DNA of 64,000 bases from Bacteriovoracaceae bacterium (lineage in GTDB: Bacteria > Bdellovibrionota > Bacteriovoracia > Bacteriovoracales > Bacteriovoracaceae): the NCBI GenBank assembly GCA_048267245.1, contig JBLWXV010000001.1, positions 195,487-259,486 on the forward strand, given 5' to 3'. Shown one piece after another: positions 21,384-29,627 of the stretch. The notes under the pieces were generated by a model that was not told the origin of the DNA, searched no databases, and saw only the letters and a program-made list of their open reading frames with translations. The number at the start of each line of letters is the position of its first letter. Positions within the stretch are counted from its first letter, which is position 1. The position numbers and the translations under genes were made by a program.

Positions 21384-21734
21384 TTATCTGCCCCCTTTAC
21401 TTGTTTCGTAAATATGGGAGATCAATAATATTGCTGTAGGAGAGAGCAACAAGAGCACAGGAAGTGTCTGCTCCATAGTTGGTGTTCTCTCGTTTCTAAA
21501 TAGAAGAAAGAGAACAAAAACTAAAAGTATAAGAAAGATGACCATCGAGATCAGCAGTTGCATCGGGACGCTTCTTCCATAGGAGTGGAGGAAAGCCGTC
21601 ATCTTCACATTAGATTTGAATCTTCTAGATCTATAAAGATAGAGCAAAGACGAAAGGACACCTACAAGAAGATAGGTGCCCCATTCGATGAAAACTATAT
21701 TATTGAATAAAGAGAGCTGCTCCACTGGCGGCAA
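21384..21734 (-). CDS. orphan membrane protein 1, overlapping the 3' end of nuoN
   Basis: 116 aa with about 3 hydrophobic helices. The only ATG/GTG starts (21734 and 21725) lie inside the last 35 nt of nuoN. Confidence 0.5.
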   Translation of the reverse strand: MPPVEQLSLFNNIVFIEWGTYLLVGVLSSLLYLYRSRRFKSNVKMTAFLHSYGRSVPMQLLISMVIFLILLVFVLFLLFRNERTPTMEQTLPVLLLLSPTAILLISHIYETSKGGR

Positions 21735-23166
21735 CCATGAGCTTTTGCCAGAATATACCTAGCACTATTACAGGGACAGTCATCACTAGAATTAATGACT
21801 GATTTCTAAAACCAAATCCTTCGATTTTCTCCTCTGATTCACTTTGCTTAAAGACCATGAGTCTCACAATTTTCAGGTAGTAGTAAGCAGAGATCACTGA
21901 GTTTAGAACAGCAATAATTGCTAGAGCGTAGTACTTTTGCTCCACAAGTGCGTAGAGAATGTTGAATTTAGCAACAAATCCAGCAAGTGGTGGAACACCA
22001 GTTAGTGAGAACATAACAACGATCATCACGATGGCCATCATTGGATAGCGAGTAGAGAGACCGTTAAATCTCTCAAAGTGATCATTGCCGTACTTATCTT
22101 GAACAAATGAAACCACATAGAAAGCAACAAGTGTCATAAAGAGGTAAGTAACGCCGTAGAAGACGATGGCGCGTACACCGATGGCATTGAGCACAACCAC
22201 ACCCATCATCATCACACCAGCGTGAGAGATCGATGAGTAAGCGAGCATTCTTTTAACTGAGCGCTGTCCTAGTGCTGATACGTTTCCAACAGTCATCGTA
22301 AGAGCACCGGCAATACTAAGAAGGCCAATCCAACTATCTTGAAGAACGCCCTCGGCACCAAATAGCACCATCGAGACGCGAACAAGGGCTGCCATACCGG
22401 CCATTTTTGGAACAATACTAAAGAATGTTGTAACTGGAAGCGGACTTCCTTCATACACATCTGGTGACCACATGTGAAAAGGTACACAAGCAATCTTATA
22501 ACCTAGACCTACAAAGAAGAGGACAAAGGCAGGGATCAAAATGGCAACTTGAGTTGTTCCAACTGTCGCAAGCACGCTCACCATATCAGAAAAATTGATT
22601 GTCCCAAGAATTCCAAAGAGATGACTCATTCCAAAGAGCATGAAAGCTGAAGAGACACCGCCGTAAAGAACATACTTAAGACCGGCTTCACTTGAGCGAT
22701 CGTCATTCTTCTTTAAGCTCGCAAGAACATAAGAGAGAATCGAAAGTGTTTCAATGCCGATGTAGAGCATAAGTAGGTTATTGGCCGAAGCTAGGATCAT
22801 GCCGCCGATGAGTACGCCGACAGCAATGATTGCGAATTCGCCCTTCACACTACCTTGGATATCATCTGAAACACTTGCGAGGTAAACCGCACCAGCAGTT
22901 CCGAGCACCATAATGATCTTAATCATCGCAGAGAATGGATCAATGACCATACTTCTTGTGAAGATCAGCTCAGGAGCGTGAGAAAAAGACGAAACCAGAG
23001 CACAAAAGCTAAAGATCAAACCGATAAAAGCAGTTGTGTAGAGGAGAGGTTTTTTCTTCTCGCCCTCATCGTAGGTTACTTCCACCAGAATGAGGCCCAT
23101 CATGGTCATGCACATGATGAGCTCCGGGATGTATCTACCAATATTCGCTAAATAATTCAGTCCCAT
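21700..23166 (-). CDS. nuoN: NADH-quinone oxidoreductase subunit N (ND2-like antiporter subunit)
   Basis: 488 aa. The conserved stretches are FHMWSPDVYEGSPLPVT, KRMLAYSSISHAG and FSLTGVPPLAGFVAKF. Confidence 0.9.
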   Translation of the reverse strand: MGLNYLANIGRYIPELIMCMTMMGLILVEVTYDEGEKKKPLLYTTAFIGLIFSFCALVSSFSHAPELIFTRSMVIDPFSAMIKIIMVLGTAGAVYLASVSDDIQGSVKGEFAIIAVGVLIGGMILASANNLLMLYIGIETLSILSYVLASLKKNDDRSSEAGLKYVLYGGVSSAFMLFGMSHLFGILGTINFSDMVSVLATVGTTQVAILIPAFVLFFVGLGYKIACVPFHMWSPDVYEGSPLPVTTFFSIVPKMAGMAALVRVSMVLFGAEGVLQDSWIGLLSIAGALTMTVGNVSALGQRSVKRMLAYSSISHAGVMMMGVVVLNAIGVRAIVFYGVTYLFMTLVAFYVVSFVQDKYGNDHFERFNGLSTRYPMMAIVMIVVMFSLTGVPPLAGFVAKFNILYALVEQKYYALAIIAVLNSVISAYYYLKIVRLMVFKQSESEEKIEGFGFRNQSLILVMTVPVIVLGIFWQKLMVAASGAALFIQ

Positions 23167-23184
23167 TGTTCTACCTATTTATTC

Positions 23185-27829: not shown

Positions 27830-29026
27830 TTAGTGTCCGCCGCCGCTACCGGCAGCAAGACTTCCAATGATTTGCCAAATTGATTCTCCGTGGAAGAGAT
27901 ACATCCAAAATGCACAACCAACGAGGTTAAAGAGTGCAATTGGAGTAAGGTACTTCCAACATAGTGTCATGAGGTGGTCGACGCGAAGACGTGGAAGCGT
28001 CCAGCGAACCCAAATCACGATATAGTAGAGAACCAATGTCTTAGAAACGAATGATCCAATTTCTAGTACGTTGCCAATTTTGCGACTAAGTTCTGGATCA
28101 AGTCCAAGCTTTTCAGTAAAGAAGACACCTGAGCCTAATTCAAATGGCACTTGGTATCCACCTAGAAAGAGTGCAACGGCCACACCGCAAACAACGAATA
28201 CTTCCATGTACTCAGCAAGAGCAAAGAAAGCAAAGCGCATACCGGTAAATTCTGTGTGGTAACCAGAAACAAGTTCTGATTCAGCTTCTGGAAGGTCAAA
28301 GGGAGCGCGGTTGGTTTCAGCAAGCACGCCAACAAAGAAGACGAAGAAGCCAATAAAGGTAAACGGATTGTGAAGGATATACCACTGGTGCGGAAGTCCG
28401 CCCTGGGCCCCAACGATAGTCCCAAACGAGAGACCACCGGCCATAAGTACCATGGCAAGAACAGAGAGGGTTACAGGAACTTCGTAAGAAACGATTTGAG
28501 CTGCACCTCTCATCCCACCAAGCATCGACCACTTTGAGTTAGATGAGTAACCGCCAAGAAAGATACCTACACCTACGAGTGATGAAACACCGATAAGGTA
28601 GAACACACCAACGTTGAGGTCAGTGAGTGTAAAGCCAGAAGAAAAGGGAATAACGGCGAAAGTAGCAAGAACACCAACGAGGCACATAAGAGGTGCAATC
28701 GTATAAAGGAACTTGTCCACGTGAGCTGGAACGATGTCTTCTTTCATCAACATCTTCACACCATCGGCAAGAAATTGAAGAAGACCAAATGGACCAACGC
28801 GGTTAGGACCCTGTCTCATTTGAAGGTCGGCAGAAATCTTACGTTCAGCGTAGGTTCCAAGACCGCCCACAGTAGCAAGTGCACCAAAGACAACAGCACA
28901 TCCAATAAAGAAAACGAGGAAGGCCATCAACCCTGAGGCATCAAAACCAAGAATGCCACTAACTGCGGCTACTGCTTGTTGATAAATTGTAAATTGTGAA
29001 ACGTATGAAACTATTGTTTCGTTCAT
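27830..29026 (-). CDS. nuoH: NADH-quinone oxidoreductase subunit H (ND1-like)
   Basis: 398 aa. The conserved stretches are [32 protein letters not shown] and [33 protein letters not shown]. Confidence 0.93.
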   Translation of the reverse strand: [398 protein letters not shown]

Positions 29027-29463
29027 GCCGCATCCTTCTTGTCATTCGCCCCATAGCCCTTGTTGTCCACGTGGTACGACTTAACCCAATCAAGGTCACC
29101 CTTCTTCCAACAATAAACCACACCCAAAAGTAGGATCATCATAAAGACGAGAAGTGAACCAAGTACAACTCCACCGGCACCGATGTCGTTAAACTTTTTA
29201 AAGATCGCTGCTACCGGGAACATCAAAGCGCCTTCCACATCAAAGATGATGAATACGAGGGCTACGACGTAAAAGCGTACGTGAAAATTTGACCACGCTT
29301 GGCCAATGGGATCTTCACCACATTCATAAGGCTGCTCTTTGAGCTTGTTAGGATTGTGGGGACGAATTAATTTACCCATTAATAGGGCACCAGCGAATAC
29401 AATTACCCCTAGGCCCATAAGAATGAGCACGGGCATGTATACGTCTAAACTATGCGACGACAT
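29023..29463 (-). CDS. nuoA: NADH-quinone oxidoreductase subunit A (ND3-like)
   Basis: YECGEDPIGQAWSNFHVRFYVVALVFIIFDVEGALMFP is present. I prefer the ATG at 29463 (MSSHSL...), preceded by GGAG, over the TTG at 29481 in the track. Its stop overlaps the nuoH start by 4 nt. Confidence 0.88.
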   Translation of the reverse strand: MSSHSLDVYMPVLILMGLGVIVFAGALLMGKLIRPHNPNKLKEQPYECGEDPIGQAWSNFHVRFYVVALVFIIFDVEGALMFPVAAIFKKFNDIGAGGVVLGSLLVFMMILLLGVVYCWKKGDLDWVKSYHVDNKGYGANDKKDAA

Positions 29464-29627
29464 GCATGTCTCCGGTTGCAAAGCAAGGTTGAAAGCTCTA
29501 AAAGACTACACGATAACTAACATATTGGAAACATTTTGGCTCGGCTTTTTCAAGGGTAGGGAATTGAATGGACGAGCGAAATCTACTCGCGGCATCATTA
29601 GAAGAGTTTATTTAATTGCGGTGTGAC

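Follow-up and report, generated by a model that had tools for sequence, protein, structure and literature searches.

The nuo operon of Bdellovibrio has been given as an example of a 'split' operon (PMC4758237). In all Bdellovibrionota, one and the same site of the chromosome is reported to carry the seven-gene cluster nuoAHJKLMN, and the predatory members to have another nuo cluster with a fused nuoCD (PMC13147790); two separate NADH:ubiquinone oxidoreductase operons are described for Bacteriovorax (PMC11789641). The proteome of Bdellovibrio bacteriovorus HD100 (PMC12546842 supplement) contains the peripheral arm of this enzyme, respiratory complex I, as Bd3086 NuoB, Bd3085 NuoC/D, Bd3084 NuoE, Bd3083 NuoF, Bd3081 NuoG and Bd3080 NuoI. 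Of the membrane arm and its neighbour it contains Bd3893 Mfd, Bd3891 NuoH, Bd3888 NuoL and Bd3887 NuoM. Here we analyse a stretch of 64,000 nucleotides (nt) from a Bacteriovoracaceae bacterium (contig JBLWXV010000001.1, positions 195,487 to 259,486), called the window below, which holds a nuo cluster with membrane-arm subunits only. We suggest that this cluster is, very probably, the membrane-arm operon of a split respiratory complex I, the partner operon nuoB-CD-E-F-G-I being located elsewhere in the genome. A split of this kind, with the genes parted along the border between the arms, is conserved throughout the phylum and already published (PMC13147790, PMC4758237).

Organization of the operon

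The cluster occupies positions 21700-29481 of the minus strand and consists of seven tightly packed consecutive open reading frames (ORFs), which correspond to nuoA-H-J-K-L-M-N. Protein lengths are in amino acids (aa).

29023 to 29463, minus strand: nuoA (ND3 homologue); PF00507, E 2.7e-32; equivalents of E. coli D79 and E81 kept
27830 to 29026, minus strand: nuoH (ND1 homologue), 398 aa; PF00146, E 2e-112
27282 to 27812, minus strand: nuoJ (ND6 homologue), GTG start; PF00499, E 8.9e-33
26971 to 27276, minus strand: nuoK (ND4L homologue); PF00420
24780 to 26957, minus strand: nuoL (ND5 homologue), 725 aa; PF00361 and PF00662 (NuoL N-terminal domain)
23185 to 24723, minus strand: nuoM (ND4 homologue); PF00361
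21700 to 23166, minus strand: nuoN (ND2 homologue), the final gene of the operon; PF00361

The stop codon of nuoA and the start codon of nuoH share an ATGA overlap, and a spacer of 17 nt with a GGAG inside separates the nuoH stop from the GTG of nuoJ; both junctions are as the original prediction had read them. The remaining spacers (J-K, K-L, L-M and M-N) measure 5, 13, 56 and 18 nt. The longest ORF of nuoA begins with a TTG at 29481, an in-frame ATG at 29463 sits 6 nt past a GGAG, and the first six residues of the listed ORF show no conservation among orthologues. The true start is likely the ATG at 29463 and not the TTG. The span first proposed for the cluster, 21700-29481, is correct for the longest ORFs, but its nuoA end should more likely be moved to 29463.

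Pfam matches and tblastn, run with E. coli MG1655 queries and with the peripheral-arm proteins of the family itself, agree with the initial claim on gene content: A, H, J, K, L, M and N are present, and nuoB, nuoCD, nuoE, nuoF, nuoG and nuoI are absent across the 64-kb window. This absence favours an orphan arm, which would function with no NuoB/D-type module at all and might act, for instance, as an Mrp-like cation/proton antiporter; the homology of NuoL, NuoM and NuoN to MrpA/D favours it too. An Mrp-like translocator with other partners was one of the two explanations in the original prediction. We find it scarcely credible in view of the subunits themselves. NuoH, NuoA and NuoJ, all encoded in the cluster, have no counterpart in Mrp.

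Identity and conservation of the subunits

All seven proteins pass the Pfam gathering scores. Against the NCBIfam equivalog models NuoH scores 334 with NF004741 (cut-off 305), NuoK 90.9 with NF004320 (cut-off 57), NuoL 576 with NF005141 (cut-off 556) and 564 with TIGR01974 (cut-off 407), NuoM 600 with TIGR01972 (cut-off 264) and NuoN 413 with TIGR01770 (cut-off 333). L, M and N, described as canonical from the letters alone, have in this way passed curated thresholds. NuoA and NuoJ stay under the equivalog cut-offs and above the Pfam thresholds. In the NCBIfam search of the window proteins the Mrp, hydrogenase-4 and Fpo models all fall far under their cut-offs: the best Mrp models reach at most 297, with cut-offs of about 500-1100, and on NuoL the MrpA models reach at most 296, with cut-offs of at least 900. 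Mrp-specific subunit families gave no match among the window ORFs scanned.

The closest structures tell the same family. NuoH has its best PDB matches in NdhA of the cyanobacterial/chloroplast NDH-1, and NuoL in the cyanobacterial NdhF1 (4.5e-114), whereas the Mbh chain MbhH reaches just 2e-33. NuoM is closest to NuoM of Paracoccus (E 8.5e-116), and NuoA is also closest to Paracoccus. For NuoL and NuoM, both of which were searched, complex I/NDH-1 chains outscore Mrp, Mbh and Dab chains in the PDB; for NuoL the MrpA and MbhH structure matches are weaker than those to complex I/NDH-1 by tens of orders of magnitude. The alignment of NuoL to Paracoccus NuoL extends to residue 627, and a terminal hydrophobic segment at about 700-725 of the 725 aa is predicted to be transmembrane (TM); the protein may have the long C-terminal extension of complex I, a lateral helix followed by a last TM.

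Functionally important residues of E. coli, 39 in number, were mapped by pairwise alignment to the E. coli subunits, and 37 of them are retained in the window proteins. Of the other two, V65 of NuoJ is replaced by Ile, and D563 of NuoL is paired with Tyr in a stretch where the alignment is poor. NuoL keeps E144, K229, K399, D400 and the His/Lys chain; NuoM keeps the equivalents of E144, K234, K265 and E407, NuoN those of E133, K217, K247 and K395, and NuoJ those of Y59, M72 and E80. Both membrane glutamates of NuoK (E. coli E36/E72; given as E36 and E73 for nuoK) and ten key residues of NuoH are retained as well. The ratio of nonsynonymous to synonymous substitution rates (dN/dS) relative to the nearest relative, at 94-98% amino-acid identity, is 0.02-0.08 for all seven genes, with 0.05-0.06 for NuoH and NuoA. 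Judged from sequence, the seven nuo genes are intact and under strong purifying selection, and the earlier impression of functional genes is in line with these residue counts and ratios.

Conservation of the loops was examined in 77-81 orthologues, with stretches scored that are at least 95% invariant. The most invariant parts are the TM1-2 loop of NuoH, its TM5-6 loop ([15 protein letters not shown]; the longer stretch is [24 protein letters not shown]) and the TM1-2 loop of NuoA (PYECG.D), in which YECG.D is invariant in 77 orthologues. The two signatures named at the outset, [15 protein letters not shown] of NuoH and YECGEDP...FDVE of NuoA, are both present and intact. In complex I structures the TM1-2 and TM5-6 loops of NuoH and the TM1-2 loop of NuoA form the wall of the quinone channel and are in contact with NuoB and NuoD. 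We argue from the conservation of these loops that a NuoB/D-type module docks on the membrane arm of the window. That the cytoplasmic loops for docking of the Q-module are the best-conserved parts of NuoH and NuoA speaks, with the Mrp models far under their cut-offs and the Nuo thresholds passed, against the orphan arm. A B/CD/I-type operon elsewhere in every relative examined speaks against it too.

The arrangement recurs in relatives. The scan of one genome per species gave 80 loci; nearly all carry the label Bacteriovoracaceae, Bacteriovorax or Halobacteriovorax, and NuoH is 61-94% identical to that of the window. About 78 of these loci show mfd and nuoA-H-J-K-L-M-N in divergent order, and mfd adjoins nuoA in 76 of the 80 relatives. 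The product of mfd is outside the enzyme; the gene acts as a conserved synteny anchor for the membrane-arm operon. In all 80 relatives, the 10 kb around nuoH on either side are free of peripheral-arm genes. Likewise, NuoB/NuoD-like hydrogenase subunits beside membrane subunits, of the Mbh/Mbx/FHL/Ech type, are found neither in the window nor within 10 kb of nuoH in these relatives.

Peripheral-arm operon in relatives

As a direct query, E. coli NuoCD retrieved only Enterobacterales. NuoCD of the family was reached from the own cluster of E. coli NuoCD, through a search against 50%-identity representatives and a choice of fused C/D proteins whose amino-acid composition is of the low-GC type, to the contigs that carry them. 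A profile made from four fused C/D representatives was then searched, and the names of its matches at NCBI include Bacteriovoracaceae bacterium and Bacteriovorax sp.

In Bacteriovorax sp. SO_2017_GW1_16 nuoAHJKLMN lies at 1,566,248-1,587,441 of a 1,814,484-bp contig (L037), and nuoB-CD-E-F-G-I (P0453, L090) at 217,776-239,473 of a contig of 1,814,484 bp. Node name and size coincide, so that both loci belong to one contig, with the halves about 1.3 Mb apart. The metagenome-assembled genome Jr-16oct17-200 carries nuoB-CD-E-F-G-I on CANFVK010000001.1 (P0432, L092) and nuoAHJKLMN on CANFVK010000006.1 (L006). The same six-gene operon is present in a Bdellovibrio-type locus (L088). None of these three six-gene operons (L088, L090 and L092) contains a membrane subunit gene, so that the loci examined show no membrane-arm set other than nuoAHJKLMN.

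These operons bear on the possibility that the window holds an extra membrane-arm set beside a complete nuoA-N operon elsewhere. Such additional nuoAHJKLMN sets occur in marine actinomycete genomes (PMC6676996), and Peredibacter starrii reportedly has nuoAHJKLMN together with a complete 14-gene operon (PMC13147790). In the two linked family genomes, in L088 and in HD100, however, the other nuo operon consists of B, CD, E, F, G and I only, and we regard an extra set as extremely unlikely here. Even taken jointly, an extra copy and an orphan arm are very unlikely for the window genome.

The other explanation of the original prediction, that the Q and N modules are encoded elsewhere, is supported by the two family genomes and by HD100, where both halves are expressed. 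From these relatives we infer that the window genome carries the same partner operon and that its two halves assemble. Some points weigh against a split complex I with the six-gene partner. The partner operon is demonstrated in two family genomes and in Bdellovibrio, and for the organism of the window and its closest relative, L001, it is presumed. The HD100 proteome documents co-expression of the halves only, and their assembly is likewise presumed. In addition, six related loci have a reduced nuoB-CD-I operon with an altered quinone site, and because of them the type of partner in the window genome is uncertain.

Reduced nuoB-CD-I operons

The six related loci (L085, the P0378 contig, L089, L093, L095 and L096) contain only nuoB-CD-I, without nuoE, nuoF and nuoG in the operon. 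Among the genomes with the reduced variant are GCA_054000395.1 and GCA_054015375.1.

L085, 3281 to 5975: nuoB-CD-I operon
L089, 3300 to 5873: nuoB-CD-I operon
L093, 7544 to 10044: nuoB-CD-I operon
L095, 7495 to 10153: nuoB-CD-I operon
L096, 6332 to 8975: nuoB-CD-I operon

Five of the six occupy the site that the six-gene operon has in L090 and L092, beside aat and a 2-hydroxyacid dehydrogenase gene; arginase and M24 peptidase genes are also found at that site in some loci. The quinone-site quartet His-His-Tyr-Asp (HHYD) is kept in 98 of the 123 NuoCD proteins of the group. The other 25 have lost the second His, which is replaced by Arg, Lys, Asn or Gln, and 12 of these 25 also lack the Tyr. 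In the reduced loci the equivalent of E. coli H228 is substituted in all six and that of Y273 in four. Among the loci examined, those with an altered NuoD lack nuoEFG (6/6) and those with a canonical NuoD have it (3/3). In L085 and L089, the two reduced loci that were checked, NuoB keeps its four N2 cysteines and NuoI both of its 4Fe-4S motifs.

It is conceivable from these loci that the complex of the window is split, with nuoB-nuoCD-nuoI as the partner. Such an enzyme would have no NuoE, NuoF and NuoG, and its NuoD would lack the usual quinone-ligating His/Tyr. The donor would then be other than NADH, possibly with altered acceptor chemistry, and NADH might be oxidized by another enzyme such as Na+-NQR, which is reported in Bacteriovorax marinus (PMC4014512). 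The shared site of five loci, the changed H228 and Y273 equivalents with the iron-sulphur (Fe-S) cysteines retained in L085 and L089, and the NCBI name Bacteriovoracaceae bacterium of one of the six loci (P0492) all favour this alternative. Against it, the canonical HHYD prevails in the group, even with a search profile made from divergent sequences, and both genomes with linked halves hold the full B-CD-E-F-G-I. No reduced locus is tied to the lineage of the window: neither the deviations of NuoH and NuoA at conserved columns nor tetranucleotide similarity gave a signal of such a link. The scan of metagenome contigs with a family-specific NuoCD motif gave mostly other lineages among the matches listed. 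We hold a reduced partner in the window genome to be improbable. It is likewise improbable that the window genome pairs its membrane arm with nuoB-CD-I to give a pump derived from complex I, in which the donor is not NADH and the acceptor site is remodelled.

We found no description of the reduced nuoB-CD-I variant in the literature searched, and it may be the only new element here. The reduced variants would offer a natural series for the question of how different redox modules drive a conserved membrane arm.

Two further features of the peripheral-arm operons were observed. NuoG in the family operons (L090 13495-14928; L092 11492-12925; L088 4469-6022) has 477-517 aa, compared with 908 aa in E. 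coli; the N-terminal Fe-S domains are present, and the large molybdopterin-type C-terminal domain is not reported by Pfam. Directly upstream of nuoB, in six- and three-gene operons alike, there is a gene for a protein of about 470-510 aa that has no Pfam family.

L090, 7894 to 9312: gene upstream of nuoB
L092, 5805 to 7289: gene upstream of nuoB
L093, 5978 to 7498: gene upstream of nuoB
L096, 4799 to 6328: gene upstream of nuoB
L089, 1733 to 3223: gene upstream of nuoB

Proposed mechanism

For the split complex I with the six-gene partner we suggest the following model. The operon of the window would encode the complete proton-pumping membrane arm, NuoA, NuoH, NuoJ, NuoK, NuoL, NuoM and NuoN, and the second, distant operon nuoB-nuoCD-nuoE-nuoF-nuoG-nuoI would encode the peripheral arm. 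From both halves a normal L-shaped NADH:quinone oxidoreductase would be formed, in which the Q-module (NuoB, NuoCD and NuoI) presumably docks onto the NuoH and NuoA loops. The reduction of quinone would then drive protons through the channel of NuoH, NuoA, NuoJ and NuoK and through the antiporter-like NuoL, NuoM and NuoN.

Flanking genes and genomic context

The operon is bounded by the following elements.

21655 to 21682, minus strand: terminator-like hairpin with a T-rich tail, 18 nt past the nuoN stop; 11-bp stem with 5 GC pairs
29464 to 29615, no strand assigned: intergenic region from which nuoA and mfd diverge; presumed, by position only, to hold the promoter of the operon
29616 to 33122, plus strand: mfd (transcription-repair coupling factor); Pfam CarD_TRCF_RID, TRCF, DEAD and UvrB_inter

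The hairpin was recognized by pattern only, in a consensus scan. Within 29464-29615 the same scan gave no sigma-70-like site.

After nuoN, seven back-to-back ORFs follow on the minus strand (16817-21734), all predicted to be polytopic membrane proteins and without a Pfam or NCBIfam family. For five of the seven, L001, the closest relative, has a counterpart of 41-80% identity, compared with 94-98% for the nuo genes. One of these five, d2, is also weakly matched downstream of nuoN in L054 and L056; the most distal ORF has no match. We considered these ORFs as extra subunits and rejected this, five being matched in L001 and only d2, weakly, beyond it. Because of the narrow distribution and the terminator-like hairpin between them and nuoN, they are not regarded as part of the system.

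The nuo operon is situated about 25 kb from the chromosomal origin region and is co-oriented with replication. The origin region covers about 50600-63300 of the window, with the minimum of cumulative GC skew near 50-52 kb; dnaA (53509-55107), dnaN, recF, gyrB and gyrA are on its minus strand, and rnpA, yidC, mnmE, mnmG, rsmG and parA on its plus strand. Other housekeeping genes of the window are the rib operon, atpB, atpE, uvrA, pdxA, SurA-like genes and mfd. At 43061-44558 of the minus strand, beside the rib operon, the genes of the ATP synthase subunits a (43414-44178) and c (43061-43378) are preceded by a 126-aa ORF without a family, and no further atp genes are found in the window. The a/c pair may be another membrane-sector set that is separated from the rest of its complex.

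At 6493-10757 of the minus strand a gene for a YcaO-domain protein (9699-10757) adjoins the genes of a GHKL-ATPase protein and of a solute-binding protein of family 5, and together they could be a small peptide-modification or signalling cluster. A scan of viral contigs with a degenerate NuoB motif gave three matches, unrelated to the system of the window. One is a lone NuoB-like gene (L083, 931-1476, minus strand) on the viral-classed contig IMGVR_UViG_3300027772_000006, which has 232,874 bp, the GC content of the locus being 30%. Its product shares 48% identity with E. coli NuoB and has an intact CC...C...C motif of cluster N2; no other nuo gene is found within 6.7 kb of the locus examined.

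Discussion

The window adds one more instance of the published phylum-wide split and in this respect changes little. It also illustrates that an enzyme should not be taken for partial on the grounds of an incomplete nuo cluster in a fragment of a genome.

Of the known systems, the Mrp antiporter resembles the cluster in its subunits homologous to NuoL, NuoM and NuoN and in its NuoK-like subunit. However, Mrp is without NuoH, NuoA and NuoJ, and its models score far under their cut-offs on the window proteins. The cyanobacterial/chloroplast NDH-1, an enzyme without NuoEFG, resembles the case here in that its ndh genes are dispersed, and its NdhA and NdhF1 are the best structures for NuoH and NuoL. 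In contrast, NuoM and NuoA of the window are nearest to Paracoccus, NuoEFG is present in the relatives represented by L037 and L006, and subunits specific to the oxygenic Ndh complexes are absent.

The marine actinomycetes Salinispora, Streptomyces and Kocuria have nuoAHJKLMN of the same content and order among their 'marine adaptation genes' (PMC6676996). Those genomes hold it as a second copy, in addition to a complete nuoA-N, whereas here it is apparently the sole membrane-arm set, complemented by a peripheral-arm operon. In the myxobacteria, too, complex I is encoded in two distant clusters, nuoEFJKLMN and nuoIHGDBA. Unlike the case described here, in which the split runs exactly between the arms, the myxobacterial clusters mix membrane and peripheral subunits.

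The closest systems are those of the Bdellovibrionota. The paper on Peredibacter starrii HCB2-198 (PMC13147790) explicitly describes this same seven-gene set, nuoAHJKLMN, and places it at one site of the chromosome across the phylum; the difference is the additional complete 14-gene operon reported there, while in the family members examined the second operon is B-CD-E-F-G-I or B-CD-I only. HD100 belongs to another class of the phylum, and its per-gene orthology to the window comes from synteny and published statements. It nevertheless shows the same partition into A-H-J-K-L-M-N (Bd3892-Bd3886, beside mfd, Bd3893) and B-CD-E-F-G-I (Bd3086-Bd3080), with the same mfd neighbour, a likewise origin-proximal position, and both halves detected as protein.

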